DNA from: an uncultured Pseudomonadales bacterium
GTDB lineage: Bacteria; Patescibacteriota; Microgenomatia; UBA1400; PJMF01
Length of the DNA: 64,000 nt
Reading direction: 5' to 3'
Assembly (NCBI GenBank): GCA_964607285.1
Contig: CAZSJW010000004.1
Span: forward strand, 7,063-71,062
Below the pieces are notes generated by a model, which saw nothing but the letters and a program-made list of their open reading frames with translations, was not told where the DNA came from and did no database searches. The position numbers and the translations under genes are program-made. Below are positions 4,439 through 58,941 of this stretch, one piece after another (positions within the stretch are counted from its first letter, which is position 1; each line of letters begins with the position of its first letter).

Positions 4439-6178
4439 ATGTCTTTTCGTTTTTTCAGCTCAAAATCACCAACACTTACACTATTTTTTCGACATCTTTG
4501 CTCATTTTGGCACCTGTACCTTTTCTTTCTATTCTGGATAAGTTATTTCGCAGTTTTTTGGTCCAACGCAATTTGGCTTGATGAAGTTGGCAACCTAATT
4601 GTGGGGCACATCAATATGTGGGGAGACTGGGCTGTTCACTTTACCATGGGTTCAAGCATGGCATATAAACAATTACTTCCCAGTAGCAGTCCTTTACTGC
4701 TTGGGGAGTCGTTCACCTACCCATTTGGTGCAAACTTCATTTCTGCAGTACTAATCAGACTGGGAATGCCATTCTTCACCGCCTTTCTATTTCCCAGTTT
4801 CCTTGGATCGTTAGCAATTGTCTTTCTGCTGTATGTACTATATTTACAAGTATTTCGCTCATCGGCTACTGCGGTCATAGCCGCTACACTCTTCTTACTG
4901 AATGGAGGTTTAGGTTTTACTAATTTCATTCGAGATGTTTCAAACGCACCAGAACCAATGCAGGTATTACTGCATCCCGAAAAAACCTATTCTGGAGACG
5001 CTGAAAAAAATATTCGCTGGGTGTCCGTGATTGAAACAATGATCATTCCACAGCGTGCATTTGCCATTGGTTTTCCAATTGCCTTGAGTGTATTGGTAGG
5101 ATTTTTCCCACTATTTTTAGAGAGGAAAAAAAGCACAAACCTTCTGAATTCCAAGCAAAAATGGCTTTGGATAGGTCTAATAGTCAGTAGTCTTGGTATA
5201 TTACCTATATTTCATGCCCACTCATTTCTTTCTGTTGTAGTAGTTCTGTTTTTTTGGGGTATCTCTGCAATTGCGCAATCAACACACAAGTCACTGACAA
5301 TTCGCGGGCTTGTCATTACTGCAGTCATGTCCGCAGTGCTTGCCACTCCACTGCTTTTTGCATTTGTTCTTGGCAACTCAACAACAAGTTTTCAAGAGTG
5401 GTTTCCAGGCTGGTATGCCAAGGAGACAGGTGAAAATTTGTTGGCATTCTGGATAAAAAACTGGAGCATCACCCCTATATTGGCAATCAGTGGGTATTTT
5501 TTCACAGTTCGTACTGAAAAAAAACACAAACTATCAATTATTTTGCTTTTCGCTCCTTTTTTCTTGCTTTTCATCCTGGCGAACCTAATCAAACTACAAC
5601 CATTTCTTTGGGACAATACGAAAATAATCGCATGGAGCTCAGTAGGTTTTTCGGGTTTGGCTGCTTATGCATTAGTCCAACTGTATCAAAAAATTTCAGA
5701 CCGAGTAGGCAAGAGGGTTGCCACAACAGTAGTTGCACTACTTTTCCTTTCAATGACGCTAACTGCAGGTATAGACACCTACCGAATACTCCGCGTTTCT
5801 GACCACTCGTACCAAATGTACTCTGCTGATGACTTACTGTTAGCTAATTGGGTACACCAGAATACCGATCCTCAATCAGTGTGGCTAACCGCCGATAATC
5901 ATAACAACTGGCTGTACAACCTGACAGGAAGACAGCCAATCATGGCATATCGTGGTTGGTTGTGGACACATGGTTATTCTTACGAACGGCATGAGCTGTT
6001 GGTAAAAAATCTGTATGCACACCCAGAAAAAACTGCAGATTTTTCTGCTGCAGGCATTCAGTATGTTGTAGTTGGACCCGCGGAAGAATATGACTGGAAG
6101 GCAAGTTCAGCATTGTTCAGTCAGTATTTTGAACCTGTTTTTCGATCTGAACAAACAACTATATTTAAAGTGCCATGA
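4439..6178 (+). CDS. Polytopic integral membrane protein, putative GT-C-type glycosyltransferase; paralog of the 51755-53788 protein
   Basis: >10 predicted TM segments and a C-terminal extracytoplasmic domain; shares a D..H...S....P...P..G....Y pattern and a TGRQ..Y.GWLWTHGY C-terminal motif with ORF 51755-53788. Confidence 0.5.
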   Translation: MSFRFFSSKSPTLTLFFRHLCSFWHLYLFFLFWISYFAVFWSNAIWLDEVGNLIVGHINMWGDWAVHFTMGSSMAYKQLLPSSSPLLLGESFTYPFGANFISAVLIRLGMPFFTAFLFPSFLGSLAIVFLLYVLYLQVFRSSATAVIAATLFLLNGGLGFTNFIRDVSNAPEPMQVLLHPEKTYSGDAEKNIRWVSVIETMIIPQRAFAIGFPIALSVLVGFFPLFLERKKSTNLLNSKQKWLWIGLIVSSLGILPIFHAHSFLSVVVVLFFWGISAIAQSTHKSLTIRGLVITAVMSAVLATPLLFAFVLGNSTTSFQEWFPGWYAKETGENLLAFWIKNWSITPILAISGYFFTVRTEKKHKLSIILLFAPFFLLFILANLIKLQPFLWDNTKIIAWSSVGFSGLAAYALVQLYQKISDRVGKRVATTVVALLFLSMTLTAGIDTYRILRVSDHSYQMYSADDLLLANWVHQNTDPQSVWLTADNHNNWLYNLTGRQPIMAYRGWLWTHGYSYERHELLVKNLYAHPEKTADFSAAGIQYVVVGPAEEYDWKASSALFSQYFEPVFRSEQTTIFKVP

Positions 6179-29241: not shown

Positions 29242-30834
29242 TCATTCCCACCGTCTCCCCACCATATCTCGGATCATCTGACTGGTTGCAGATAGTGTAG
29301 TTTTGTCAAAGATATCATGAAGTAGATATCGCAACTCAGTGTCATTTAGTATTTCCATAAGTCTGAGACTCCGCAACAAGTTAAGGTATTGATATTCGCT
29401 GGCTTCGTTTCTTTCTTCAAATATCAATTTAAGCCTGAGCGACATCAGAGTGGGATATCGTTCTGCGAGTGTTTTATTAATGGCGTATACGCTGTTGATT
29501 GTGGAACGAACTTTTATACCTAAACTGTCATCTTTAACACTAACTAGAACAGCCTCGAGAAGTCTCACAAACTGCCGCTGCGTGAGCCGTTCTGACACAT
29601 ACATCCTAACCAATTCTGCATGATAGTCCTTAAAACTTTGGAGAGGATTTTCTGACAAACTAAGTAGATTTCTCAATCTATAAGCAATCGCACTGTGATT
29701 CAATCGAAAACCAAGCTCGAGTGCCACTTCAATTATTTGTTTTACTTCCACAGTCAGTGCGTATACCTCGGGCTGGTACTGAAGTACGAGGTGAAGCATT
29801 TCCGTGGCGATTGGTACAGTCAAAGTCTGATTTGTCAAATGAGTAGTTATACCCACAATATATTTTTGCGCTCCTGCAACCTCCATACCCACATAGGGAC
29901 CAATATAGAGGAGTAGTCTTGCCGCTGGCGATACCCGTGAAATTCGATGCGCATTCATGAACTGTAATGCTATGTACAGCCTTCCCGCAGCTCTGGACTC
30001 CGAAACGTCTGCCGTGTATAAACTAGGCCTCACCAGTTCAAGTGCACCAGCTGTATCTAACCGACCTGAGAGAACTCCAGTAATTATGCTGTTGACAGGC
30101 CACTGCCACTCTGTGCGTTCGTGAGGAACAACGGTAGGCGGCATACCCGACTGAGTTTGATCGGCAAATCTTACCGCAGTGGTTGAAGTCGGATCATCTG
30201 CAAGATCAGCATGTGTTAGTACCAAATGATTAGGTGTGGTAGGAGCAACTGTGGGTTGCGGAACAGGAACTGAGAGCAGGTGCAGCAAACTATCAATATC
30301 TGGTGAGATTGCTAAGTAATTGATCACGCGCACGGCATCCTGAGCAACGTCATACCTGAGTAAATCTAGCAGTGTTCTTGAGTGGTCCGAAAGCCTAAAT
30401 GAAGCCGAGTCTAACTCGAACAGTAAATCTTTCTCAAACAAGTTGAAGAGTAGTATCCCTATGGTCACAGAGTCAGGAGCCTCATTTGTACTGCATTCCC
30501 GCACCAACTCTTGCCATTCAGACTCAGCAATGCCAAGTTGCTGTCCTGATTCACGCAGTAGCCTAGTTCTCGCGGGTTCACCCATAGCCAACACAATGTG
30601 TTTCCAAGCATTTTCATCAGTGTGATCAAAAAGCGATTCTCCTATAACTATCTCGTCCTGAAGAGCTAAGGGTGCTGTGGGTCGTACACTAGAGGGTCGT
30701 AGTCTGCGAATAATCTGGCCAAGCTCATGCACAAATCTGCTTGATACACTTGACACATGATCTCCTAGAGACAAATCACGTCCATATCTAATTCTCAGCT
30801 GATCAGGGATTGAAATCTCGGCAATATTGACCAT
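29242..30834 (-). CDS. Large hypothetical cytoplasmic protein (530 aa)
   Basis: Long clean ORF; no recognisable domain. Confidence 0.45.
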   Translation of the reverse strand: MVNIAEISIPDQLRIRYGRDLSLGDHVSSVSSRFVHELGQIIRRLRPSSVRPTAPLALQDEIVIGESLFDHTDENAWKHIVLAMGEPARTRLLRESGQQLGIAESEWQELVRECSTNEAPDSVTIGILLFNLFEKDLLFELDSASFRLSDHSRTLLDLLRYDVAQDAVRVINYLAISPDIDSLLHLLSVPVPQPTVAPTTPNHLVLTHADLADDPTSTTAVRFADQTQSGMPPTVVPHERTEWQWPVNSIITGVLSGRLDTAGALELVRPSLYTADVSESRAAGRLYIALQFMNAHRISRVSPAARLLLYIGPYVGMEVAGAQKYIVGITTHLTNQTLTVPIATEMLHLVLQYQPEVYALTVEVKQIIEVALELGFRLNHSAIAYRLRNLLSLSENPLQSFKDYHAELVRMYVSERLTQRQFVRLLEAVLVSVKDDSLGIKVRSTINSVYAINKTLAERYPTLMSLRLKLIFEERNEASEYQYLNLLRSLRLMEILNDTELRYLLHDIFDKTTLSATSQMIRDMVGRRWE

Positions 30835-40212: not shown

Positions 40213-41241
40213 ATGAATGAAGTATCACAGAATTCTGATGCGATCCTATTTGCTATCATTGAGCGTTCCTTACAACAACAACTAACAAACGATGAGCTGC
40301 GCAATCTAGCTGAACAACTGTTTATTGGTGACCTTACCACTGAGCAAATACTGGCAAACATACAAACTACCACTGAGTACTACCAAAAGTTACGCAATGT
40401 ATTTGAAAGCACAACTAGCCCGCATCAAATGATTGTACGACTTAAGGAGTATTTCTTGCATAAAGCAGCAACCCAACTTATTGTTGCTGAAACAAATGAA
40501 GAGTCGCATATGGCTAAAATGCCTAGCATTTACGCTAGTATCCCTATACAACCAGTGATGCAAGCAGAGCAAAGAAAAAAAACTGAGAATCTAAGAACAT
40601 TAAACGTTATAAACCTGTTTACTAAGTTAGTATCACTAATAAGACCAGATATGAACGAATTGGCTGATCTTCTCAACTCAGATGAAGCTCATCAGAGTGA
40701 TCCAACTTGGTTCAGAAAAGCGGTAGAACACCATCCGCAGTTATCACCAATCCTTTGGCTACTTCCCACTGACCTAACGTACGCAGACTTAAACAAACTC
40801 TGTGAAGCAACTGAGTACAGTTCTACAGGCAAAAAAATCAGGAGATTTGGTGATCGTCAAGTTGCATTTACTACCCCGAGTTTACAAACTATTAATCTCT
40901 CCGGGCCACTGCCCAAAGTGGAGCCCAGTCATGATGAGGAAGAAGTGAGATTTTGGGAAAAATCAGTACCTGAATTGCTCGGTGAGGAGAAGACGCTCAC
41001 AACCCTAACACTTAACCTGGAAGAAACTGAACTCGATGAGCTTTACAATAGTATTCTACTTCCATTTTTACAGAAAAGAATGTTGGCTCAGGTAGCAATG
41101 ACTGCGATATATAGCAGCAAATATTACCATAAAATCTCAGAATTGATTGACCCCGATCCGATAAAGGCAGAGCGCGCAATTAGATTTATAGGATTAGTAC
41201 TTACACAGAAAGTCCTAGGAACTCAACAACATGAAAACTAA
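40213..41241 (+). CDS. Hypothetical protein (342 aa) in the position E. coli uses for the pheM leader
   Basis: Strong RBS AGGGAG; 11-nt overlap with the pheS start. Confidence 0.5.
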   Translation: MNEVSQNSDAILFAIIERSLQQQLTNDELRNLAEQLFIGDLTTEQILANIQTTTEYYQKLRNVFESTTSPHQMIVRLKEYFLHKAATQLIVAETNEESHMAKMPSIYASIPIQPVMQAEQRKKTENLRTLNVINLFTKLVSLIRPDMNELADLLNSDEAHQSDPTWFRKAVEHHPQLSPILWLLPTDLTYADLNKLCEATEYSSTGKKIRRFGDRQVAFTTPSLQTINLSGPLPKVEPSHDEEEVRFWEKSVPELLGEEKTLTTLTLNLEETELDELYNSILLPFLQKRMLAQVAMTAIYSSKYYHKISELIDPDPIKAERAIRFIGLVLTQKVLGTQQHEN

Positions 41242-43015
41242 CCTCATTTACCTCTCAGAGTCATATACTAAACATACAACAGCAAAAATAGTGACAGTCG
41301 ATACCTCGGGAAACCAACCATTCATCATCCTCAACCAAACAGTTTTCTACGCCCAGGGCGGGGGACAACCAGCTGACAACGGAACCATCACCGGGAAAAA
41401 TGGTGTCATGGCTGTAACCCATGTGTCATACAACGGAGGAGAGCTGCAACACAAAGGCACAATCACTGGAACACTGGCAGCAGGAGACACTGTTGAACTA
41501 GAAATTGACTGGGAGCGCAGATATCGCCACATGCAACTACACACTGCAGGTCATATCTTAGATCAGGCAGTAAAAAATGCAGTGCCAAACTGTAAGGGTG
41601 TGGACGGCAATCATGGGTTGAGCAAAAAACCGTATGTTGAGTTTGACGCTGCTATTCAAGCATCGGACATCCCTGCAATTCAAGAGCAACTAGATGCAAT
41701 CAGAGTAGCTAATCTGCCTATCACTGCTGAGATGGTTACATATGACCAATTGGTGGCTCGTAATATTACGCTCCCTTTTGATTTGCCGAAGAACAAAGAA
41801 CTCCGCATTGTCCAAATTGGCGAGTATCCAACCATGCCTGACGGCGGTACTCAACTCAAGACTACTAGCGAATGCTTGCCTATTACAGCAACAGGCGTGG
41901 AAGCAGTACAAACAGAAACTGGCGACCGTTGGCGCGTCTACTACTCAGTTGGAGAGACAACTGCGGTGCAAGCCTCCAAACCACAATCCAGTGACAACAC
42001 AGTGCCTGAGGAATTTCAAACAGCCGTCCAAGCATTCATCACACAAAGCGCAACAGATACCACCCCCGCAGCAATTACCAAAGCTTTCAAGGCACTGACA
42101 ACGCAACTCAAATCAGTCCCCAAAGACCAAAAACCTGCCGCAGGCAAACTCCTAAACCAAGCCAAAGAAGCCATGGAAGCCCGCATCGCCGCCCTCGCCA
42201 GTAACCCAACAACCACCCAAACCTGGCAAGACCTAACCATGCCAGGCATCGCCCCAGCAATTGGCCACATCCACCCTGTCTCACAGGCCATGGAAGAAAT
42301 CACCCATATCTTCGAGCAAATCGGCTTCACCAGAGTTCGCTATCCAGAGGTAGATTGGGATTGGTATGTGTTCGAGAGTCTCAACATGCCACCCAGCCAC
42401 CCTGCTCGTGATGAGTGGGAGACGTTTTGGGTAGACTTGCCACCAAACAACGAAAAGGGGACAGTAGTTTTGACAACCCACACCTCCAATGGCCAAGTAC
42501 GGGAGATGGAGAGACTGAACAGCAAGCCGCCGATCCGCATGATCAACATCGCCCGCTGCTACCGCCGCCAGCAAGATGCCACACACACCCAAATGTTCCA
42601 CCAATTCGAGGGTTTGGTTGTGGACAAAGGCATCACCATTCAGCACCTCAAGGGAACGTTAGATTATTTCGCCAAAGAATTTTATGGTGAAGGTGTCAAA
42701 TCCCGTATCCGTCCGTTTCACTTTCAGTTTACTGAGCCGTCATTTGAGGTAGATTTCTCGTGTACCGTTTGCGATGGCACGGGCAAGGTTGGAACCGACA
42801 AATGTAAGTTCTGCAAATCGGGTTGGCACGAAGTCGGGGGCGCTGGCATGGTGCACCCTAATGTGCTCAAGGCTGGTGGCATAGACCCAGAGGAGTACAC
42901 TGGATTTGCTTTCGGATGGGGAATAGAGCGAACATACACGCTCAAACCAGGTTTGCATATCGATGACATTAGACAATTTTATAGCTCAGACCTCAGGTTC
43001 CTGCGCCAATTCTAA
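41231..43015 (+). CDS. pheS: Phenylalanine-tRNA ligase alpha subunit with an N-terminal AlaX-like (AlaRS editing-type, tRNA_SAD) domain
   Basis: C-terminal half has PheS class-II motifs (FTEPSFEVD, GWHEVGGAGMVHPNVL, GFAFGWGIERT); N-terminal ~250 aa has TVFYAQGGGQPADNGTI and HTAGHIL (HxxxH), as in AlaX/AlaRS editing domains. Confidence 0.8.
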   Translation: MKTNLIYLSESYTKHTTAKIVTVDTSGNQPFIILNQTVFYAQGGGQPADNGTITGKNGVMAVTHVSYNGGELQHKGTITGTLAAGDTVELEIDWERRYRHMQLHTAGHILDQAVKNAVPNCKGVDGNHGLSKKPYVEFDAAIQASDIPAIQEQLDAIRVANLPITAEMVTYDQLVARNITLPFDLPKNKELRIVQIGEYPTMPDGGTQLKTTSECLPITATGVEAVQTETGDRWRVYYSVGETTAVQASKPQSSDNTVPEEFQTAVQAFITQSATDTTPAAITKAFKALTTQLKSVPKDQKPAAGKLLNQAKEAMEARIAALASNPTTTQTWQDLTMPGIAPAIGHIHPVSQAMEEITHIFEQIGFTRVRYPEVDWDWYVFESLNMPPSHPARDEWETFWVDLPPNNEKGTVVLTTHTSNGQVREMERLNSKPPIRMINIARCYRRQQDATHTQMFHQFEGLVVDKGITIQHLKGTLDYFAKEFYGEGVKSRIRPFHFQFTEPSFEVDFSCTVCDGTGKVGTDKCKFCKSGWHEVGGAGMVHPNVLKAGGIDPEEYTGFAFGWGIERTYTLKPGLHIDDIRQFYSSDLRFLRQF

Positions 43016-43034
43016 ACTACACCGAAAGAAACTT

Positions 43035-45023
43035 ATGAACATCCTCATCCCACACTCTTGGCTCGCAGAACATCTGGAAACCGACGCCACCCCAGAAGAA
43101 CTCCAAGCCAACCTCTCCCTCTGCGGCCCATCCGTGGAGCGCATTTACGATCGCCAAGGCGAGCCTGTCTATGACATCGAAGTCACCACCAACCGTGTTG
43201 ACAGCATGTGCGTGCGTGGCGTTGCTCGTGAAGCAGGGGTTATCCTCAAGCAGTTTGGCAAACAAGCCAAGTTCTTGGAGAGAGCAGACCTCAGCCAAAA
43301 ACCACAACCAACTGGCGAGACGCTGCCTCTACCAAAAATCGTCAACAACCCCAAACTCTGCAAGCGGGTGTTGTGTGCAGTCCTAGATGGAGTAGAGCGA
43401 ACACCTACCCCCGCATGGATGGCCAAACGTCTCGAGCAAACAGACCAAAATGTCCACGACAGCGTCATTGACATCACCAACTACATTACGCACGAACTCG
43501 GACATCCTTGTCATGCGTTCGACTACGATGCAGTGATGGCATCTGGCGGCGTGATTATCGTCAAGGAAGCCGCACCTGACAAGAAGTTCAAAACCCTGGA
43601 CGGCCTAGAGTTCACCACCGTGGGTGGGGAAGTAGTGTTCGAGAATGAAGCAGGAGAAATTATTGATTTACCAGCCATAAAGGGCACAGCAAACACCTCG
43701 ATTTCTGACAAAACCAAGCGAGTGCTGCTCTGGATTGAGAACTTAGACGCCGAAAAAGTTCGGTTTGCCTCCATGACACATGCTATTCGCACGGTGGCGG
43801 CTCAGCTATCGGAGAAACATGTGGATCCAGCTTTGGGTGAAATCGTGTTATACCGTGGGATTCAACTCTATCAAGAACTTTGCAATGCCAGACTAGCCAG
43901 CCAAATATTTGACGAGTTCCCTGGCAAAGCTTCACCCACCACAGTTGAGCTTTCCCTTGAAAAGGTCAAACAGTACCTCGGACTAGAAATCCCATCCGAT
44001 CGCATCGAGGAAATCCTAAGAGACCTCGGTTGCCAAGTTCAGCTGAAAGGCAGACAACTTTCGGTCACACCGCCAACCTTTCGTCATGATTTAGCAATTC
44101 CTGCAGACATAATCGAGGAAATTGCTCGAGTCTACGGCTATCACATGCTACCAAGCACCTTGATGGATTCAAAAATCCCACTGGAGAAACCTCAGGGCTT
44201 TGATAGCTACCTCGAGTCTCGGCTGAAACGCTTCCTAGCAGCCATCGGCATGCAAGAAGTCTACACCTACTCGATGGTAAGTGAGGAAATTGCTCGGCAG
44301 TCAGGCTATGCTCTGAATGAGCAACTTAAACTTAAGAATCCGCTCACCGATGATCGGCTCTATTTGCGCCGGTCGCTTATTCCTTCCCTGGAGGAGGTGT
44401 TCACCAACAATCCGAATGATCAGCAGACCTCAATCTTCGAGTTTGCGAATGTGTATCATCCTCGCAAGGATGATCTGCCAGATGAGACAACACAGATTGG
44501 TATGCTGGGTACGGCAGGATATCGCTCATTGCGTGGGCAGGTGGAAGCATTGCTGGCACAGATGTTCTTGCTTGCAGTTGTCATCACTCCTCACGAGACT
44601 GCGCTACCTGACTTTTCGCAATCTGGCAACATCGTTACTACAGATGGCGTAGAGCTGGGTCACATAGGTGTTACTAAGCAGGGGAGAGCAGCTGCATCGT
44701 TGTCGCTGTCTGCTTTGACACAACATGCAAAGACGCACCCAACGTATGAACCACTGCCAAAAGCTGCTCCTGTTATTGAAGACTTGACCTTCACTTTGCC
44801 AGAAAAAACCCCAGTCGGAACAGTCTTGCAAACTATGCGCTCCGCCGATGCATTAGTGCATTCAGTTGATCTGGGCAGCGTGTACAATCAGAACTACAGT
44901 TTTCACATTGTCTATGCCGAACCAGAAGCCACACCAGCACCAGAAAAAATTGAAGCAATCAGAAAAATCTTGGTTACCCAAGTGGCTACAAAGCACCAAG
45001 GTACCTTGGTTGGCACAGTCTAG
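43035..45023 (+). CDS. pheT: Phenylalanine-tRNA ligase beta subunit (short form without the OB-fold tRNA-binding domain)
   Basis: B3/4 domain (YDIEVTTNRVDSMCVRGVARE..HPCHAFDYD), B5, and a C-terminal FDX-like domain; the N-terminal region jumps directly into B3/4. Confidence 0.8.
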   Translation: MNILIPHSWLAEHLETDATPEELQANLSLCGPSVERIYDRQGEPVYDIEVTTNRVDSMCVRGVAREAGVILKQFGKQAKFLERADLSQKPQPTGETLPLPKIVNNPKLCKRVLCAVLDGVERTPTPAWMAKRLEQTDQNVHDSVIDITNYITHELGHPCHAFDYDAVMASGGVIIVKEAAPDKKFKTLDGLEFTTVGGEVVFENEAGEIIDLPAIKGTANTSISDKTKRVLLWIENLDAEKVRFASMTHAIRTVAAQLSEKHVDPALGEIVLYRGIQLYQELCNARLASQIFDEFPGKASPTTVELSLEKVKQYLGLEIPSDRIEEILRDLGCQVQLKGRQLSVTPPTFRHDLAIPADIIEEIARVYGYHMLPSTLMDSKIPLEKPQGFDSYLESRLKRFLAAIGMQEVYTYSMVSEEIARQSGYALNEQLKLKNPLTDDRLYLRRSLIPSLEEVFTNNPNDQQTSIFEFANVYHPRKDDLPDETTQIGMLGTAGYRSLRGQVEALLAQMFLLAVVITPHETALPDFSQSGNIVTTDGVELGHIGVTKQGRAAASLSLSALTQHAKTHPTYEPLPKAAPVIEDLTFTLPEKTPVGTVLQTMRSADALVHSVDLGSVYNQNYSFHIVYAEPEATPAPEKIEAIRKILVTQVATKHQGTLVGTV

Positions 45024-45075: not shown

Positions 45076-46269
45076 GTGTTTCTTGCTCCTTCCAACTTGT
45101 TCTACAAGTTCTGGGAAACTGGATCATACATCCACGGCTTGCAAATTGACTACCTCATTGGCAAGGTATACCTAAGTCAAATTCCTTTGTTGCTGCTGCT
45201 CATTTTGTGGTTGAGCGAAAAAATCACCTGGAGCAAGCTAAAAAAATACTGGCAAAGTTCCTATACCAAATATTTTATCATTTTGTTTCTGATACTCGGG
45301 TTTCGACAGCTCTTTACTCCTGAACCAATTGTCAGCCTTTGGCAGTGGTTCTCCCTTGGAACAGTAGGTCTATTTGGTTTGTATGTACATGAAAGATATA
45401 AAACACTAGGCAAGTCTGTAATTCCCTGGGCACTGGCTGCCACCATCGTGTTTCAATCTATTGTTGGACTTGTCCAGTACACCGTGCAACATGAACTAAT
45501 CGGCTACCAATTTTTGGGCGAACCAACATTGTCAAGATCTATTGGAATAACTACTGCAACTGTAGCGGGGGCAGAGCGCATCTTGCCGTACGGCACCACT
45601 GCACATCCCAATGTGTTAGCAGGCTTTTTAGCCATCTACTCACTGTTGCTACTCCGTACTAGTCACTCAAAACTGCACACCCTCCCAATTATCCTGCTTG
45701 GAACAATCACTGTTTTCATCACAACTTCTGTAAGTGGAGTACTCACCCTATGTTTTGGGCTCCTGCTGACTATGCTACCAAACAAAATACTACCTGGTTC
45801 ACTATCTCAAAAGGTGCTACTTGTACTGCTTCTAGTGGCTGTCCCCATACTAATTGCAAGTGTGGCCACAACAGCACCTAAAAATCTCTCAGTCGTCCGC
45901 CGTGCGTATCTACAACAATCTGGGCTGCGTATCTTTGCCCAATACCCAATCTTTGGAACGGGTATACAGACAGTGACCAGATACATTGAGTCTTACTCAC
46001 CTTCACCAGAGGTAGTAAGATTTACTCAACCACCACATCATGTAGGAGTTTCACTTCTGGCTGAGACGGGCATATTTGGTTTGGGTATACTGGTAGTTCT
46101 ACTTCACAGCTACAAGCACTCTGCAAAACTACTTGCAGCAGCACCAATTTTAGTTCTTGATCACTATATATGGACTATATTGCCTGGAACGTTCTTGATT
46201 TTTTTATTCATGGCAGTAGTCTCCAATGAACAAAAAAACCTCGCAGAGTCAGAAAAACTAACTACTTAG
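45076..46269 (+). CDS. O-antigen ligase-like (Wzy_C domain) polytopic membrane protein; start uncertain (GTG at 45076 or upstream non-ATG)
   Basis: Wzy_C-like loop YPIFGTGIQ...HHVGVSLLAETGIFGLG with about 10 TM helices; the maximal ORF (from 44866) overlaps pheT. Confidence 0.5.
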   Translation: MFLAPSNLFYKFWETGSYIHGLQIDYLIGKVYLSQIPLLLLLILWLSEKITWSKLKKYWQSSYTKYFIILFLILGFRQLFTPEPIVSLWQWFSLGTVGLFGLYVHERYKTLGKSVIPWALAATIVFQSIVGLVQYTVQHELIGYQFLGEPTLSRSIGITTATVAGAERILPYGTTAHPNVLAGFLAIYSLLLLRTSHSKLHTLPIILLGTITVFITTSVSGVLTLCFGLLLTMLPNKILPGSLSQKVLLVLLLVAVPILIASVATTAPKNLSVVRRAYLQQSGLRIFAQYPIFGTGIQTVTRYIESYSPSPEVVRFTQPPHHVGVSLLAETGIFGLGILVVLLHSYKHSAKLLAAAPILVLDHYIWTILPGTFLIFLFMAVVSNEQKNLAESEKLTT

Positions 46270-48025
46270 TTTGATCTGGGGGAGCAATACTAACCCGCAC
46301 TCCTGGGAACTGTGCTCTCAAGTTATTTAGAATTACTTCTCCCTCTGTTGGGGTAATCACAGACTCACCTCGGGCAACAATTTGATCTAAGCTATCATTG
46401 CCTCGTATATACGCTAGTAATCTATGCAACAATCCCTTCCTGGGAGGTGTATTCAGTTCATCCAAAGGTATAACCTCAAGTAAATCTACGGTTTTCACAC
46501 TAGCAATCTGCTCTACAGGAAACTGGACTGATGCGGGTAAATGCAGGTTTACTTTTCCTTCCCAAGAAAGCCTGGCATATCCGTCATCACGTTCGGTGAT
46601 TGCGGTGGCTTTTACAATTTTTTGCTCTGGGTTTGCTGACTGCATAAACACCGCTAGCTCTGACGAGCTTAGCTTGCTCCTTTTTTGGAAGTCACTCATC
46701 ACTGGTCCTAACTCCTCTAGAAGTTGATCAATGCTATAAGGATTTGCCTTGCTGAAACTCTCCAACCAAGCAGGAAATAACAGCTCCAGTGCTTCAATTT
46801 CACTCGCTGCTGGTTCAATTATTTCAAGTATCTCCTGTAGTTCTGACTGCATCCAGTAGGGAAGGGAGTATCTCTCAGTGATCAGCTGTTTTTTTTCAAC
46901 AAGACTTACTGACTCTTGCTGAGCGTCATTGCGCAAATACCAATACCCAGAATGAGACAAAAGTTCGCTAATGACACTATTGTTTTCTGCACCGACAGAA
47001 TTAAATGGAATATGTGCACTGAGCTGCAATGTCTCCATCACGCAAGCAAAAAGGTACAACCTAGCTCTATCTTTATTCATCTCTCCAAGTGGTATACGTA
47101 GTTTGTTCTTGTCCAGCATAAGCATATACAACCCTTTTACTTGCTCATGTAGCTGAAGAATAGGACTTTTTTTGCTTCTTCTCAATCCAGCTGGATTATC
47201 TGAATCAACTGAGTTTGGTACATCGGGCTTAAAAGCATTCGGCAGGCGCAGTGCAAATAGGTACCGAAGAAAAGTGTCTTCTGCTGTACGTTCTGGAAAA
47301 ACTGGATGTTCCTGAGTATATTTTTGTGAATACGCTGGCAACGAATTGAAAAAAGCGTTCCAGTTAAGTTTGAGTACTTTGAACTGCTCTAATGACTGAT
47401 TAGCAAAGTAACCCCCAAATTCTGTGCCACCAATTCCCAGCGTCTGGACTGCGACAAGCGCACGGTCCGATGCACTATACATGACTGGAAAGGCAACTTT
47501 TTCACCCAAAGCCACTGAGGCTACTGCAATACACTCATGGAATTTTCGACTCAATTGCTCAAAGCTGGGTCTGAGTGGGTCAGTTACTTCATTAGCTCTC
47601 TCTGCTAGTATGAACTCTGCCATTTTTCTAAGTTCAGACACAGAAACAACCTCGCTTTCGGCATTTTCTTGGTGCGCTGCCTCTAAACCCTTATGTATTA
47701 CGTTGGCCAACTGCGCTACAGGCAAAGAATGCAGTGAAAGTGTCAGACGTTTAGTCAGCACAGCAAAACCCAGTCGAGGCTTCCACCTGGTAGCTTCTGA
47801 CTCCATTTCGACTCTAGGTCTGAGTGCAACTTCAGCAGTTGTTCCATGCAGAAGTTGCTGAAGTCCTGTACTATCTTCTGGCGACTGCAACTCTAAAAGA
47901 GGATCTATGACACCAAGAATGGTTGCCAGTCGTAATCGAGCAGCAATCTCACTTTCTGTCTCTGTGCGAATTATGTAATCGAAAGTCTGTTCGTATGCAT
48001 CAAGTTCTTTCACCATACCTACCAA
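46262..48025 (-). CDS. Large hypothetical cytoplasmic protein (587 aa)
   Basis: Long clean ORF; no recognisable domain. Confidence 0.45.
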   Translation of the reverse strand: MVGMVKELDAYEQTFDYIIRTETESEIAARLRLATILGVIDPLLELQSPEDSTGLQQLLHGTTAEVALRPRVEMESEATRWKPRLGFAVLTKRLTLSLHSLPVAQLANVIHKGLEAAHQENAESEVVSVSELRKMAEFILAERANEVTDPLRPSFEQLSRKFHECIAVASVALGEKVAFPVMYSASDRALVAVQTLGIGGTEFGGYFANQSLEQFKVLKLNWNAFFNSLPAYSQKYTQEHPVFPERTAEDTFLRYLFALRLPNAFKPDVPNSVDSDNPAGLRRSKKSPILQLHEQVKGLYMLMLDKNKLRIPLGEMNKDRARLYLFACVMETLQLSAHIPFNSVGAENNSVISELLSHSGYWYLRNDAQQESVSLVEKKQLITERYSLPYWMQSELQEILEIIEPAASEIEALELLFPAWLESFSKANPYSIDQLLEELGPVMSDFQKRSKLSSSELAVFMQSANPEQKIVKATAITERDDGYARLSWEGKVNLHLPASVQFPVEQIASVKTVDLLEVIPLDELNTPPRKGLLHRLLAYIRGNDSLDQIVARGESVITPTEGEVILNNLRAQFPGVRVSIAPPDQTK

Positions 48026-51754: not shown

Positions 51755-53788
51755 CTAGTCCAACTCCTGCCCGACCCAACCCTCCGGAATAACCCGTTCA
51801 AGCAATACAACTTCAGGATTATTCACCACTCGCAACCAATGTGGGATAGCTGACAACGTAGCTGAAAATGTGGCAGAGTTCATAAACACATCCTCCAAAA
51901 GCTCGCCCTTGCGCAACAACAGATGGGTGACTGTAAGGTCCTGTGCCAGCTCAGCCGATCTTGTGGGGTCCAAAGCAAGCATCCGATCAACAGCAACTTT
52001 TCGTGCCGCCGTATCTTGGTTATGGCTATCTAAAATTCCTACACCACCCAAGTACGTTCGCCGACCAGTAAAAAAGTATATGTAGGGAGTAACTTTTTCC
52101 AATACATGATTCGGGTGTGTTTGAAGGACCTCGCCAGCATACTGCCGATCAGCCATATATGTCAGTGCTTCCTCATGCGAAGCTGAAATGCTAAATCCAT
52201 CTGTTCCCCGTAAGTAGTTTTTAAAGTAAAAATACTGCATGAAACCCGTTTGCACCACTGTGACTGCCAACAACACGCCAACCCCAAACTGCACAAATCG
52301 CTGACCCCGCAGAGCTCCAAGCACTACAGCTGTAATTGGATTTAATATAGCAATCGCAACCACCATAAAGTTGAAGCTATTTGATCCACCAGAGGTTTGC
52401 AAAAAATTACTCCCAATGAGTGTGAAAACCAATGCTGGCACGAGGAGAAAAAGCAGTTCCTGTCCCGCTAGTTTCTGCCTCAATCGCGGAAATACTGCCA
52501 AAAAACCAAGTAGACGAAGATGGTAAATTGCAGCCGCAAAAATGCCAGCGGCTAATGAGTACCATACAACTAGCGCACGAGTATTTCCTGCAGCTTGGTA
52601 CACTTGCAACCTCAACCACCACTCATTCCAGTTGAGTTTTTGCACCCCAAGCAGTAGTTTTGGCCAGGTTAGAAAATCGAAAAACAAGCCACCTGCAGCA
52701 GCATTGGCTGGTAAATAAATGGCAGCACCCAAAACAGCAGTCACGACTCCCATAACTAAAAATGGTACAAGTGTCTTGCGCCATACAAATGGTTTTCGTA
52801 GTTCCAATGCTGCAGTCATCCCAGCAACTATCACCATCCCCAATCCAGCAGCTAAGCCAAAATACACCTTGAAACCTAACAAACATGCTGTGAGCACGCC
52901 GATGCAGAAGGCAGTCATCAAGCTCCGTTTCTGCCAAAACTCGTGCCATAGTAGTAGCACTGAAAAAAACACTAGTTTTGCAAATGCCTGCGGCGGATTG
53001 AGAAACTGCAGAACACCGTGATCTACAAATACCTCAAAAGGTTCTGGTGCGTTTCCACCCAGCACAATATCGATGAGCCAGGTCAGCTCGCCAGCGACAT
53101 AAAAAAGCACAAGCCCAAACACAACTGTGCGAGTATTTTTGCTCCAACCCTGTAGAAGAGCAGTCAGAACAAGCCCCATCCATGTTGCCAAAAAAAGTGG
53201 CACAAAGTGAAAATGCACGTGATTAAGTGGCAGTAGCCAAACGCGACTCAACTCCGCCACAACCAAGTTGGACAAATAATGGTAGTTGGTCACTACCATG
53301 CCAGCTGCACCTGGCTGATATGGAGGGACACTTTCTACCAAAGACCTACTTAATGAAAGATGGAAAATTCCGTCATAAATATTCACAAAGTAGTAGGTTG
53401 GACCAAGAGCTGTTCGCCAACCAGATCCCAACACCGGTACTAACTGCAAAAAAATTCCAAAAAAAAGCACTATCCAAACGACTCTCGGCCATTTTGGCGT
53501 CCAACGCAGTGGAAGTATCTCATGTCGCACTTTCCAGGCTAGAAAAGCAAATAGCAACAAAAGTGGGTACGTCATCCACCGCAGCTGCAACCATCCCAGC
53601 AAATACCCTTGCAATGCCCAGAAACAAATACCGAACACTGGTGCAAGCAAAAACTGGATTCGTTGGGAAAAACTTGTGTATCGTGCTAGTAACCAGCCAG
53701 GAACAAACCAAGAGATGCCGACTGCTACCAAAAACCAGATCAGCGATGCCCACCACTGCCACATCCAAATGCTATAAATCTCCCACAT
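51755..53788 (-). CDS. Large polytopic membrane protein (677 aa), putative GT-C-type glycosyltransferase; paralog of ORF 4439-6178
   Basis: 14+ TM helices and a C-terminal extracytoplasmic domain; shared motifs with 4439-6178. Confidence 0.5.
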   Translation of the reverse strand: MWEIYSIWMWQWWASLIWFLVAVGISWFVPGWLLARYTSFSQRIQFLLAPVFGICFWALQGYLLGWLQLRWMTYPLLLLFAFLAWKVRHEILPLRWTPKWPRVVWIVLFFGIFLQLVPVLGSGWRTALGPTYYFVNIYDGIFHLSLSRSLVESVPPYQPGAAGMVVTNYHYLSNLVVAELSRVWLLPLNHVHFHFVPLFLATWMGLVLTALLQGWSKNTRTVVFGLVLFYVAGELTWLIDIVLGGNAPEPFEVFVDHGVLQFLNPPQAFAKLVFFSVLLLWHEFWQKRSLMTAFCIGVLTACLLGFKVYFGLAAGLGMVIVAGMTAALELRKPFVWRKTLVPFLVMGVVTAVLGAAIYLPANAAAGGLFFDFLTWPKLLLGVQKLNWNEWWLRLQVYQAAGNTRALVVWYSLAAGIFAAAIYHLRLLGFLAVFPRLRQKLAGQELLFLLVPALVFTLIGSNFLQTSGGSNSFNFMVVAIAILNPITAVVLGALRGQRFVQFGVGVLLAVTVVQTGFMQYFYFKNYLRGTDGFSISASHEEALTYMADRQYAGEVLQTHPNHVLEKVTPYIYFFTGRRTYLGGVGILDSHNQDTAARKVAVDRMLALDPTRSAELAQDLTVTHLLLRKGELLEDVFMNSATFSATLSAIPHWLRVVNNPEVVLLERVIPEGWVGQELD

Positions 53789-56245: not shown

Positions 56246-57040
56246 ATGTCCAACACAAGTAAACACAACACCAGACTGGCAATTGTCGGCTTCGGTAAGT
56301 TTGGGCAACTTCTACATCACCTTTTTAGCCAAATACCATGGCTTGAGTTGGTAGTTGTTTCTGGCCAGAAGCTAAAACAACCGATTCACCAGATCTCCTA
56401 CTCAGAACTCGGTGCAGTTGACATTATCATACCCTGTGTGCCGATTCGAGCCTTTCGCCCGGTAGTTAAGCAAATTATGCCACACTGCAAACCTGGAGTA
56501 ACTATCCTTGATGTTTGCTCAGTCAAGGTTTTTCCTACGCAGATTCTCCTAGATCATGCAGCACTAGATACTTACCTTGTTACCTGCCACCCAATGTTCG
56601 GTTCGACAACGATTGCAGAACAAGGATCGGCTGAAGGGTTGCCAGTCACTATTTGGAATGTTCGCTCTTCCAAACATGCGTACTCCCAAGTTAAGCGAAT
56701 TTGGCAAGAACTGGCGGTGCGGCTAGTCGAAATCTCTCCAGAGGAGCACGACCAGCAAGCTGCGCGATCTCAGGCATATGCGCAGCTGATTGGCAAATTG
56801 GGAGCACGTATGCAGCTGAACGCTTCACCTCTGGACACAGTTTGGTTTACCCGGCTACTAGAAATTCAGTCTACAGTCGAGCAGAACACCCAAGAGCTAT
56901 TTATGGATACCCAGGTCTTTAACCCTTACGCCAAGCAGATGCGAGCAGAACTACAAACGAAGCTCGTGCAGCTCGAAACGGACATCCAAGCATTTGCCAC
57001 CACCCAAGTATCGAGTACAATACAGAAGGAGATCCTATGA
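56246..57040 (+). CDS. tyrA: Prephenate/arogenate dehydrogenase (TyrA family)
   Basis: N-terminal Rossmann AIVGFGKFG, CHPMFG, EEHD; stop overlaps the tyrS start (ATGA). Confidence 0.65.
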   Translation: MSNTSKHNTRLAIVGFGKFGQLLHHLFSQIPWLELVVVSGQKLKQPIHQISYSELGAVDIIIPCVPIRAFRPVVKQIMPHCKPGVTILDVCSVKVFPTQILLDHAALDTYLVTCHPMFGSTTIAEQGSAEGLPVTIWNVRSSKHAYSQVKRIWQELAVRLVEISPEEHDQQAARSQAYAQLIGKLGARMQLNASPLDTVWFTRLLEIQSTVEQNTQELFMDTQVFNPYAKQMRAELQTKLVQLETDIQAFATTQVSSTIQKEIL

Positions 57041-58941
57041 AATTCACAATATCCGAGTCAGTTTTTTCCCGTTTATCAAACTATACTGTTGGGGTGCTTA
57101 TTCTTGATGGGCTGAGTCAAAACGAGCATGATCAGGCTGCATTATCAGATTTGACGGCAAAACTGATCAACGAAGCCAAGCCACATTCATCAAGTGACGA
57201 ACGCATCACAGACTGGCAAACTGCTTTCAAAGCAGCTGGCGTATCTGGAGATGTCAAACCAGCCCATCAGACTCTACTCGAGCGTCTGCAGAAAACTGGC
57301 TCACTACCAAATGTTCTGCCGCTAGTAAATCTAACCAACGCACTTTCAGTCAAACATTTAGTCCCGATCGGAACACACACACTGGATATGCTCGATGGTG
57401 ACCTAGAGGCTCGACTCACTGAAAATTCGGATTCATTTATCCCCATAAACGCAACTCAAAGAGAGCAAATCCCTGCAGGCGAACTGGCTCTTACCTCCGA
57501 TAATACCATTTTAACCAGAAATCTAGTTTGGCGCCAAGGTGAGACTTCTAAAATCACCGACCACTCTCGATCTGTTGCTATACTTATTGATGCAGTCGGC
57601 TCACAGGCAGAAGAAGTAGTGCAAAAGGTTCTGAATGAGATCAAAACAGCAATTAGTGTTGTTTTTGGTATCACGGAAAGTAAGTCGTCTATTCTTTCCC
57701 TGTCAAACCCTGAGTTTTCCTGGACTGATACCAGCAATCCAGAGGAGAAAAAACAAAATCAAAAATTGCATTCCGTTCTCACCAGAGGAGTCTCCGAAGT
57801 TCTCCCCAGCAAAGATGGCCTGGCAGCCATCATGCATAAAAAGAAAATCCGAGTTTTCCTAGGCATTGACCCTACTGGCTCACTCCTAACCCTCGGCCAC
57901 AGCGTAGTTCTGCGTAAACTCCAGCAGTTTGCAGATCTGGGCCAGGAAGTAATCCTCCTCATCGGCAGCGGCACAGTCCGCATCGGTGACCCAACCGGCA
58001 AGGACTCCACCAGGCCAGAACTAACCGATGAGCAAATTCAAGCAAACTTCAAGAACTGGAAAGAGCAGGCCAGCAAGATCTTGGATTTCGACAAGATCAA
58101 AATAGTCTACAACGGTGACTGGCTTGATGAGCTCACCTACGCTGATCTGGTCAAGCTCATGGCAAAAACTACTGTTCAACAGCTTATCGAGCGAGATATG
58201 TTCCAAGATCGCCTCAAAAACGGCAAACCTATCTTTGGTCACGAGATCATGTACCCTTTACTCCAAGGCTACGACTCGGTACACATGGATGTAGACCTGG
58301 AAATTGGGGGTACTGACCAGACCTTCAACATGATGATGGGTCGCCACCTGCAAAAAGCCTACAACAACCACGAAAAATGGGTGCTAACTACCCCCATCAT
58401 CAACGGTACAGACGGCCGCAAGATGAGTAAGTCATACGGCAATTTTGTGGCAATCACAGAAGAGCCCAGGCAAATGTACGGCAAACTGATGTCGATTGCT
58501 GATGACATGATCCTAGAGTACTTCACACTTCTGACGGACACCCCAGAGACTGACCTTGCAACCATAGCGGCAAACATGGCTGCGGGGGACAATCCCATGG
58601 AGTTTAAAAAGCGCTTAGCCTTTACCATCACCGAGCAGTACCACACCACTGCTGCAGCAACCGACGCGGCTGAGTTTTTCACCAGCACTGTGCAAAATAA
58701 ATCAGTGCCAGATGATGTTCTAGAAGTACAGCTAGAGTCTTCAGATAAGACCGCTTTGGATGTGCTGAAACGGGCTGTTCCGGAGCGCAGTAATACTGAG
58801 TTACGACGGTTGGTAGAGCAGGGGGCTGTTACGATTTTGCCAGGTGATCAAAAAATTACGGACGCAACACAAGAGTTAGACATTGCGGATGGTACAGTCA
58901 TCAAAATTGGCAAGCGTAGGTTTGTCAAACTGCGTAAGTAA
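57037..58941 (+). CDS. tyrS: Tyrosine-tRNA ligase with an N-terminal B3/4 (PheT editing-domain-like) domain fusion
   Basis: Residues ~1-235 show the B3/4 pattern (LPNVLPLVNLTNALSVKHLVPIGTHTLDML.GDLEARL..); the C-terminal ~400 aa is TyrRS (GIDPTGSLLTLGH, KMSKS, S4-like C-terminus). Confidence 0.8.
   Translation: MKFTISESVFSRLSNYTVGVLILDGLSQNEHDQAALSDLTAKLINEAKPHSSSDERITDWQTAFKAAGVSGDVKPAHQTLLERLQKTGSLPNVLPLVNLTNALSVKHLVPIGTHTLDMLDGDLEARLTENSDSFIPINATQREQIPAGELALTSDNTILTRNLVWRQGETSKITDHSRSVAILIDAVGSQAEEVVQKVLNEIKTAISVVFGITESKSSILSLSNPEFSWTDTSNPEEKKQNQKLHSVLTRGVSEVLPSKDGLAAIMHKKKIRVFLGIDPTGSLLTLGHSVVLRKLQQFADLGQEVILLIGSGTVRIGDPTGKDSTRPELTDEQIQANFKNWKEQASKILDFDKIKIVYNGDWLDELTYADLVKLMAKTTVQQLIERDMFQDRLKNGKPIFGHEIMYPLLQGYDSVHMDVDLEIGGTDQTFNMMMGRHLQKAYNNHEKWVLTTPIINGTDGRKMSKSYGNFVAITEEPRQMYGKLMSIADDMILEYFTLLTDTPETDLATIAANMAAGDNPMEFKKRLAFTITEQYHTTAAATDAAEFFTSTVQNKSVPDDVLEVQLESSDKTALDVLKRAVPERSNTELRRLVEQGAVTILPGDQKITDATQELDIADGTVIKIGKRRFVKLRK

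Follow-up and report, generated by a model that had tools for sequence, protein, structure and literature searches.

An AlaX-M-type module fused to the α subunit of phenylalanyl-tRNA synthetase across Patescibacteria, with a putative part in tRNA-Phe proofreading

Phenylalanyl-tRNA synthetase (PheRS) is a textbook synthetase with its own dedicated editing fold, the B3/4 domain, and to our knowledge AlaX-fold domains act as editors only in the alanine and threonine systems. What, then, does an AlaX-like module do at the N-terminus of a PheRS α subunit? The question is raised by pheS in a 64,000-nucleotide stretch, hereafter the window, of contig CAZSJW010000004.1 (GenBank assembly GCA_964607285.1, positions 7,063 to 71,062, forward strand), deposited as an uncultured Pseudomonadales bacterium and placed by GTDB in Patescibacteriota. 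A sequence-only reading of the window had proposed an AlaX-like domain with a degenerate zinc site on PheS, a PheT without its OB-fold, and a reshuffling of such modules in this genome. Judged from profile and alignment comparisons, the fused protein is a genuine, lineage-wide PheRS α subunit with a complete AlaX-M-type module. We propose, tentatively and with confidence a little short of even, that the module serves as a tethered second deacylase for PheRS, sharing or taking over the proofreading of tRNA-Phe.

Gene and domain layout of the fused PheS

The fused gene belongs to an operon on the + strand composed of infC (38943), rplT (39759), an open reading frame (ORF) at 40213-41241, pheS (41231-43015) and pheT (43035-45023). 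Its translation is one unbroken ORF of 594 codons, uninterrupted from 41231 to 43015 as had been read before, and it resolves into the features below. Counts written n/120 refer throughout to homologues among the matches listed (at least 120 protein clusters) and represent clusters, not independent evolutionary events; predicted local distance difference test scores (pLDDT) are from an AlphaFold2 model of the fused PheS built on 119 family sequences.

41231..43015, + strand: pheS fusion gene, 594 aa; AlaX-M-like module, tether, PheS arm and class II catalytic core
41231..41515, + strand: AlaX-M-type N-terminal β-barrel, residues 1-95 (Pfam tRNA-synt_2c, C-terminal part, at residues 18-96; pLDDT 93-98)
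41357-41368, + strand: GGGQ glycine-rich motif of the barrel, residues 43-46, near-invariant in the fusion family and in Asp-type and Cys-type representatives
41516..41959, + strand: AlaX/AlaRS-type editing domain, residues 96-243 (NCBIfam AlaXM, HMMER alignment, Foldseek)
41540..41554, + strand: HTAGH, the HxxxH motif (H104, H108); both His in 120/120
41840..41854, + strand: DGGTQ, residues 204-208, at the place of CxGxH; D204 corresponds to C182 of PhoAlaX-M and Q208 to the last His
41960..42088, + strand: low-complexity flexible tether, residues 244-286 (pLDDT <50 at 245-255; pairwise identity 0.17)
42089..42205, + strand: PheS N-terminal helical (tRNA-binding) arm, residues 287-325 (Pfam Phe_tRNA-synt_N, PF02912; start of TIGR00468)
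42275..43012, + strand: PheS class II catalytic core, residues 349-594 (Pfam tRNA-synt_2d; top Foldseek matches are PheRS α chains)
42761..42823, + strand: Cys4 knuckle CTVCDGTGKVGTDKCKFCKSG, residues 511-531, within the PheS core; four Cys in 120/120

The first ~250 residues had been described as AlaX-like, and profile and fold searches define there a complete AlaX-M-type module of ~245 residues. The NCBIfam AlaXM profile (NF040865) matches residues 3-239 over its positions 1-232 of 234 (E 4.8e-39), with a score of 134.4 bits that lies under the curated equivalog cutoff of 300 bits. The module aligns to Pyrococcus AlaX-M (2e1b, 9iuw) and to the archaeal AlaRS editing region (2zze, 3wqy), and HMMER places its PDGGTQ on the PCGGTH of AlaX-M 2e1b/9iuw and AlaRS 2zze. 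In Foldseek, the N-terminal half superposed on 2zzf, an AlaRS editing region, at a root mean square deviation (rmsd) of 2.5 Å over 250 columns, and on the free AlaX 3kew with a template modelling (TM) score of 0.84. The model has a mean pLDDT of 90.4 and a whole-chain predicted TM score (pTM) of 0.49, low confidence being confined to residues 245-255 and 326-330. In a predicted structure, such high pLDDT combined with low pTM fits a mobile tethered domain.

The remainder of the protein is PheS. A coiled-coil linker had been proposed between the module and the catalytic core; the region is indeed helical (helices at residues 260-324 in the model) and the core is canonical, but the supposed linker is the normal PheS arm, which follows a disordered tether of ~40 residues. 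Pfam Phe_tRNA-synt_N matches this arm at residues 286-322 with 31.6 bits against a cutoff of 22.3, tRNA-synt_2d covers residues 334-594 (E 6e-82), and TIGR00468 (pheS) spans residues 287-594 with 257.1 bits, over its curated cutoff of 237.45. Averaged over pairs of family members, identity is 0.49 in the barrel and 0.44 in the editing domain; it falls to 0.17 in the tether and reaches 0.75 in the PheS core.

The Cys4 knuckle within the core (CxxCxGxG…CxxCKxG) gives a weak DnaJ_CXXCXGXG match. E. coli PheS has MGKNGK at this place, without a knuckle. The knuckle is also present in the unfused PheS of locus L011, and a shorter form is found in PheS of loci L082 and L088.

Distribution of the fusion

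A search of 5.8 billion proteins returned at least 120 clusters with the fusion at 46-80% identity, nearly all with 99-100% query coverage; one partial sequence among those listed has 92%. In every listed cluster an AlaRS-family domain precedes the PheS core, and the PheS arm is recognised as well in nearly all of them. The clusters stem from NCBI, JGI, ENA and Logan assemblies. Those with names belong to Woesebacteria, Microgenomates, Pacebacteria/Paceibacterota and the ‘Patescibacteria group’, where taxon names are as deposited and several third-party annotation (TPA) metagenome-assembled genomes (MAGs) are evidently mislabelled. In public databases the fused proteins are labelled PheS or hypothetical. 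A module-only scan of species-representative genomes identified ten fused loci, among them loci from Paceibacterota, Amesbacteria and Dojkabacteria. The fused pheS is followed by pheT in the nine of them whose contig reaches far enough. Other members of the lineage, checked in these clusters and the ten loci, share the fusion, and the module reshuffling that had been taken as peculiar to this genome is lineage-wide.

A frameshift, a lost stop or a chimeric assembly might have joined alaX to pheS, and two-gene forms do exist in relatives (with a TAA stop between the genes in L019 and a 525-nt spacer in L011). The chance of such an artefact is negligible, because the ORF in the window is continuous, a protein identical to the window PheS (P0001) exists in the databases, and the architecture recurs in more than 120 clusters drawn from four data sources and in ten species-representative genomes. 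The fusion is real, old, under selection and lineage-wide in Patescibacteria.

Proteins of 318-322 aa with AlaX and the arm only were considered as a separate architecture and rejected, P0125 being a contig-end fragment. Among fused PheS proteins, P0087 (601 aa) has the canonical CGGTH, and P0129 (607 aa) has QSAGH with CGATH and lacks a Cys4 knuckle of the pattern searched for.

An aspartate at the position of the catalytic cysteine

HXXXH and CXGXH are said to be present in all AlaX-like family members, and mutagenesis found the Cys of CXGXH crucial for editing (PMC12003907). In the same study, Zn2+ was dispensable for the structure and catalysis of AlaX and AlaRS and shielded the catalytic Cys from oxidation by reactive oxygen species, while a hydrophobic-shell residue (T172 of PhoAlaX-M), aliphatic in AlaRS-type and Tyr in ThrRS-type domains, decided zinc competence (Gogoi et al., PMC12003907).

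The sequence-only reading had noted the HxxxH pair in HTAGHIL and the replacement of the second motif, CxxxH, by DGGTQ, both of which alignment to AlaX-M and AlaRS confirms; TVFYAQGGGQPADNGTI is likewise confirmed in the pheS translation alongside HTAGH and DGGTQ. Its description of the zinc site as degenerate does not hold. Position 204 is Asp in 119/120 and Cys in one, H104, H108, G205 and G206 are invariant (120/120), T207 is kept in 119/120, and position 208 is Gln in 94 and His in 26. Across 119-120 sequences, down to 46% identity, G44, Q46, D49, G51, R97, G107 and R192 are invariant and G43, G45, D204, T207 and Y238 near-invariant. In these alignments purifying selection is concentrated on the AlaX pocket of the module.

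An exhaustive HMMER search for AlaX-M-like proteins gave 8048 matches at E ≤ 1e-3. Only W94, M101, D204 and position 208 separate 26 Asp-type from 119 Cys-type representatives taken from this search. The pocket formed by GGGQ, D49, H74, R97, R192 and Y238 is conserved in the fusion family as in canonical AlaX. The shell residue V194, equivalent to T172 of PhoAlaX-M, is nearly always V, L, M, I or T (117/119 rows), and Tyr is not among the five commonest residues; being aliphatic and not Tyr at this position, the module is of the AlaRS type.

As far as the alignments go, the Asp-type is a branch of AlaX-M in which the catalytic and zinc-ligand Cys has become a near-invariant Asp and the last His is either Gln or His. 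Because D204, G205/G206, T207 and the remaining pocket are conserved, the site is a selected alternative motif and not a product of decay. Asp together with a relaxed fourth ligand is what would be expected if a carboxylate had replaced the thiol and zinc protection had become unneeded.

PheT without B2 and with a remodelled B3/4 pocket

The partner subunit of the window bears two changes, located in the features below.

43035..45023, + strand: pheT, 662 aa + stop; B1 remnant, B3/4, B5, catalytic-like module and weak FDX-ACB; B2 absent
43359..43886, + strand: B3/4 editing domain of PheT with remodelled pocket; N139 and W233 in place of R244 and E334
43449-43451, + strand: N139, at the position of E. 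coli R244 (PheT alignment)
43731-43733, + strand: W233, at the position of E. coli E334 (PheT alignment)

The start at ATG 43035 agrees with the sequence-only reading, whose 663 aa correspond to 662 aa and the stop. The suspected absence of the OB-fold is borne out. TIGR00472 (pheT_bact) matches the window PheT over profile positions 152-795 only (340.9 bits, under the cutoff of 402.65), T. thermophilus PheT aligns at 3-35 and then at 153-763, leaving its residues 36-152 without a counterpart, and the Pfam scan gave no tRNA_bind (PF01588) match in this protein. Since both the profile and the T. thermophilus alignment skip exactly that stretch, the B2 OB-fold alone, which is inserted in B1, is cleanly absent. 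Such B2-less PheT proteins are common (73/124 in a broader sample). A link between the fusion and the loss of the OB-fold had been implied, and it does not stand: in loci L087, L089 and L090, with window-like synteny, PheT is B2-less and its partner is an ordinary PheS of 332-342 aa, and in Dojkabacteria L009 the fused PheS is accompanied by an 820-aa PheT, a canonical length, in which the alignment offset implies that B2 is kept. As each occurs without the other, B2 loss is independent of the fusion, which rules out the AlaX module as compensation for the lost B2 OB-fold.

The same observations bear on whether the module is an inactive tRNA-binding or chaperone appendage that improves the capture of tRNA-Phe by a PheRS lacking other tRNA contacts, an explanation we consider distinctly unlikely. 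It has a precedent in the AlaX-like domain (AXD) of apicomplexan cytosolic TrpRS, which in Plasmodium is followed by a 72-residue linker and is needed for tRNA binding and aminoacylation (PMC3680381). The replacement of the catalytically crucial Cys in the module, and a PheT with no B2 and only a weak FDX-ACB match, would also suit it. However, the Plasmodium domain has lost all four ligands, whereas in the module H104, H108, G205 and G206 are invariant and D204 and GGGQ nearly so in more than 100 sequences; a surface role in tRNA binding would not impose such conservation of the pocket, and B2 loss does not track the fusion.

The second change, in the editing pocket of B3/4, was absent from the sequence-only reading. 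In E. coli PheRS, Asn254 and Thr354 position catalytic waters, His265 stacks on the substrate, Gly318 and Ala356 are implicated in proofreading, Glu334 reads the Tyr hydroxyl and Arg244 contacts C75 (PMC8599791). The window PheT retains T148/N149, H160 and the equivalents of G318, T354 and A356, and the positions of N254, H265, G318, T354 and A356 are invariant in 120/120 of its homologues. The position of Glu334 is Trp in 75 of these, Leu in 42, Phe in two and Glu in one; that of Arg244 is Asn in 100 and never Arg, and that of Arg359 is Leu in 115.

Glu334 is kept in 123/124 other PheTs, including 73 B2-less ones, and in all proteins in which PheT itself is fused to a module (see below). Across ten loci and 15 contig-matched pairs, Glu334-altered PheTs partner Asp-type fused PheS, and alaX is fused or adjacent at every Glu334-less PheT with an inspectable neighbourhood. 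In locus L088 (Microgenomates GW2011_GWA2_44_7) PheS is fused to an Asp-type module, and its PheT still has Glu334. By these sequence associations, Glu334 loss is nested within the association with AlaX and is not one-to-one. Because the PheT-fused lineages, L088 and L085 keep Glu334, the module is not a simple replacement of B3/4, and a strict one-to-one replacement of B3/4 editing is ruled out. Module position 208 (Q/H) showed no covariation with PheT position 334 (W/L) in the 15 matched pairs.

Other arrangements of Asp-type modules with PheRS

Fusion to a PheRS subunit was found for 16/25 Asp-type representatives against 1/119 of the Cys-type (Fisher p ≈ 5e-14, uncorrected for kinship and query bias), the one long Cys-type representative being a PheS fusion. 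None of the 150 best AlaX-M-like representatives was found fused to another synthetase, a result that does not take in the Cys-type proteins of 300-405 aa with extensions.

Five long Asp-type proteins (P0130, P0132, P0143, P0179 and P0220) are PheT with the module at the C-terminus, after FDX-ACB, a second kind of fusion that the earlier reading had not recorded. The P0179 locus has the synteny of the window and an ordinary pheS of 327 aa. This class is rare, and the nearest PheT relatives of P0130 are unfused. P0220 (1089 aa, JGI metagenome) has a tRNA_bind OB-fold after FDX-ACB, not inside B1, followed by the Asp-type module.

Unfused modules also adjoin Phe genes. L011 has a free Asp-type gene upstream of a 352-aa pheS and pheT, separated by a spacer of 525 nt, and in L019 the TAA of a Cys-type alaX lies one codon ahead of the pheS ATG. 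Fusions read through under code 25 (UGA = Gly) were rejected for both, as the L019 stop is TAA and the L011 spacer is full of stops. In L085 (4821-5635 and 8715-11552; host with 56% guanine plus cytosine, GC) only 8 nt separate a free Asp-type gene, with the motif DGGVH, from the tRNA-Phe(GAA) that follows it, and pheS-pheT, with a fully canonical PheT, lie 3 kb downstream. This tRNA-Phe pairs G with C at 3:70 and apparently has G73 as its discriminator. The idea that free Asp-type alaX genes systematically adjoin tRNA-Phe was considered and dropped: the arrangement occurs in L085 and at no other free Asp-type locus, and at one Cys-type locus tRNA-Phe lies 2.7 kb away.

Free proteins of ~245 aa with D-G-G-[TVI]-[QH] come from Roizmanbacteria, other members of the Candidate Phyla Radiation (CPR), Parachlamydiaceae and Micrarchaeota. 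One of the free Asp-type proteins, P0136 (L083 6001-10236 / L084), is flanked by radical-SAM and pyridoxal-dependent tyrosine-decarboxylase-like genes on two contigs. Within the 64-kb window there is no AlaRS editing domain, free AlaX or DTD gene.

The module could be an ordinary AlaX for trans-editing of Ser- and Gly-tRNA-Ala, carried on PheRS simply because a reduced genome gains by co-expression, by stability or by keeping it close to the translation machinery, with the PheT change unrelated. This we hold to be unlikely, if still to be taken seriously. AlaX-M hydrolyses Ser- and Gly-tRNA-Ala and reads G3:U70 (PMC11295145), the pocket of the module is almost identical to that of canonical AlaX-M with a shell residue of the AlaRS editing type, several Asp-type proteins are free-standing away from Phe genes, and no misactivation of small amino acids by PheRS is known. 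Yet the module has been attached repeatedly and differently to α as well as β of PheRS, and those of the 150 best representatives that were scanned showed no fusion to any other synthetase; the loss of Glu334 is nested in AlaX-associated lineages only; and a tether to the tRNA-Phe-binding arm would hinder, not help, access to tRNA-Ala.

We give a slim chance to a third explanation, in which the module edits another class of error on tRNA-Phe or other tRNAs, such as non-protein amino acids or D-aminoacyl-tRNAs, with Asp marking a new specificity and B3/4 retuned in parallel. The Asp-type is a distinct conserved variant that also stands free in Chlamydiae, DPANN archaea and CPR, one such gene lies beside the radical-SAM and tyrosine-decarboxylase-like genes mentioned above, and the retained catalytic residues of B3/4 with a hydrophobic residue at 334 suggest altered, not lost, specificity. 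The pocket, however, differs little from that of canonical AlaX.

Proposed function

Against these alternatives we prefer the reading of the module as an active second hydrolytic site of PheRS. The disordered tether of ~40 residues would let the module sample the aminoacylated CCA end and hydrolyse mischarged product, either while tRNA-Phe is held by the arm and PheT or just after its release. In the T. thermophilus PheRS-tRNA complex (1eiy, 2iy5), the N-terminal arm of α and the C-terminal B8 of β contact the body of the same tRNA, so both attachment points seen for the module would place it near bound tRNA-Phe. After the gain of the module, B3/4 in one large clade would have lost its reader of the Tyr hydroxyl (Glu334 to Trp, Leu or Phe) and its C75 contact (Arg244 to Asn). 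Because B3/4 keeps its catalytic residues but has lost Glu334 and Arg244, proofreading of tRNA-Phe has probably been redistributed between the module and B3/4. The exchange of Cys for Asp may make the site insensitive to oxidation and independent of protective Zn2+, which would explain the relaxed fourth ligand position.

Several observations weigh against this reading. Beyond W94, M101, D204 and Q208, the pocket is nearly identical to that of Ser/Gly-specific AlaX-M, and on that account shows no sign of enlargement for tyrosine. The residue replaced is the very Cys that mutagenesis found crucial (PMC12003907), with Asp as its putative substitute. Glu334 is intact in the PheT-fused lineages, L088 and L085. 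In a rough and quick neighbour-joining (NJ) tree, too coarse to count independent events, the Asp-type is not recovered as one clade and falls into several scattered clades. About 9/25 Asp-type representatives are free-standing, most of those examined lying away from Phe genes, and Cys-type alaX can adjoin pheS too, as in L019. Rare fused PheS proteins carry CGGTH (P0087) or QxxxH with CGATH (P0129).

A bolder version of the hypothesis seems possible but somewhat unlikely. In it, an oxidation-proof, zinc-independent Asp site was captured by PheRS at least twice, in both subunits, as a new cis-editing domain, and in one large clade of Patescibacteria it took over the proofreading of tyrosine or near-cognates from B3/4, which then lost its specificity residue.

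Comparison with known systems

Among known proteins the module resembles AlaX-M of P. horikoshii (PH0108, 2e1b) and P. furiosus (9iuw), with which it shares the two-domain layout, the GGGQ loop, length, HxxxH, an aliphatic shell residue and the equivalents of R97, R192 and Y238. AlaX-M is usually a free-standing protein of ~230-250 aa with CxGxH that belongs to the alanine system, whereas the module forms the N-terminus of a 594-aa PheS, has D-G-G-T-Q/H and is genomically tied to PheRS.

The cis-editing domains of AlaRS and ThrRS (N2) are likewise AlaX-fold hydrolytic domains on class II synthetases for proofreading at the CCA end, and the P. horikoshii AlaRS editing region superposes on the module with a Foldseek rmsd of 2.5-2.9 Å. 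The host here is instead PheRS, of subclass IIc, which already has the unrelated B3/4 editing domain. The editing domain of AlaRS and ThrRS is integrated, while the module sits on a long disordered tether at the N-terminus of α or at the C-terminus of β, and the family motif said to be universal (PMC12003907) is altered in it.

The AXD of apicomplexan TrpRS (PMC3680381) is another AlaX-derived domain that stands on a long linker at the N-terminus of a synthetase outside the alanine and threonine systems. It is AlaX-S-like, carries Asp, Ser, Asn and Val at the four zinc/catalytic ligand positions and is regarded as an aid to tRNA binding, in contrast to the AlaX-M-like module of PheS with its strictly conserved pocket.

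Natural substitutions in the PheT editing site of a reduced-genome lineage have a parallel in Mycoplasma, whose PheRS is reportedly editing-defective by nature. In the lineage described here only the E334 and R244 positions are changed, N254, H265, G318, T354 and A356 being invariant, and the clade with this change has also gained a second putative editing module. The ProRS INS domain and free YbaK/ProXp proteins show how one editing fold can serve as a cis-domain, a trans-factor or a differently placed fusion (PMC3973320); both fold and synthetase differ from those of the PheRS module.

Other features of the window

The window also contains a fusion of B3/4 to TyrRS, as had been reported from its sequence, and four large ORFs of 530-677 aa that match no Pfam family (E ≤ 0.001-0.01).

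57037-58941, + strand: TyrRS, 634 aa; Pfam B3_4 at residues 72-188 (E 2.4e-17), class I core at 268-550
4439-6178: large ORF without Pfam family
29242-30834, - strand: large ORF without Pfam family
46262-48025, - strand: large ORF without Pfam family
51755-53788, - strand: large ORF without Pfam family

At the syntenic position in the unfused relatives L089 and L090, TyrRS has 391-394 aa and no B3/4. A kinship between the TyrRS-fused B3/4 and the PheT B3/4 of the same genome was considered and set aside, as BLASTP found none and the two match at the Pfam level only. Between rplT and pheS, the ORF at 40213-41241 (+ strand, 342 aa) overlaps the pheS start by 11 nt and has no Pfam match; in relatives sharing this operon the place is empty or holds an ORF of at most 90 aa. 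Over 42001-44000, a segment taking in the PheS core and the first part of pheT, the GC fraction is 0.512, compared with 0.42-0.47 on either side.

Implications

Full-text literature searches returned no account of AlaX fused to PheRS or of an AlaX with the Asp-type motif. What is new here is the combination of a known editing fold with an altered catalytic motif, a new host synthetase and a remodelled editing site in that host. The Cys motif was treated as universal in a paper of 2025, and a near-invariant Asp at the position of the “crucial” Cys runs counter to the universality claimed for HXXXH/CXGXH (PMC12003907). The Asp-type modules thus offer a natural test of the model in which zinc protects the Cys (PMC12003907): if Asp supports catalysis, neither metal nor thiol is needed.

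An AlaX module on PheRS, together with the loss of the Tyr reader, would demonstrate that unrelated synthetase systems can trade editing modules. If the takeover is true, it would be a documented case of an editing domain replaced by an unrelated one in the same synthetase. The lineage would also provide a natural system for studying how proofreading divides between two sites, and it bears on translational fidelity in ultra-small, host-dependent bacteria.

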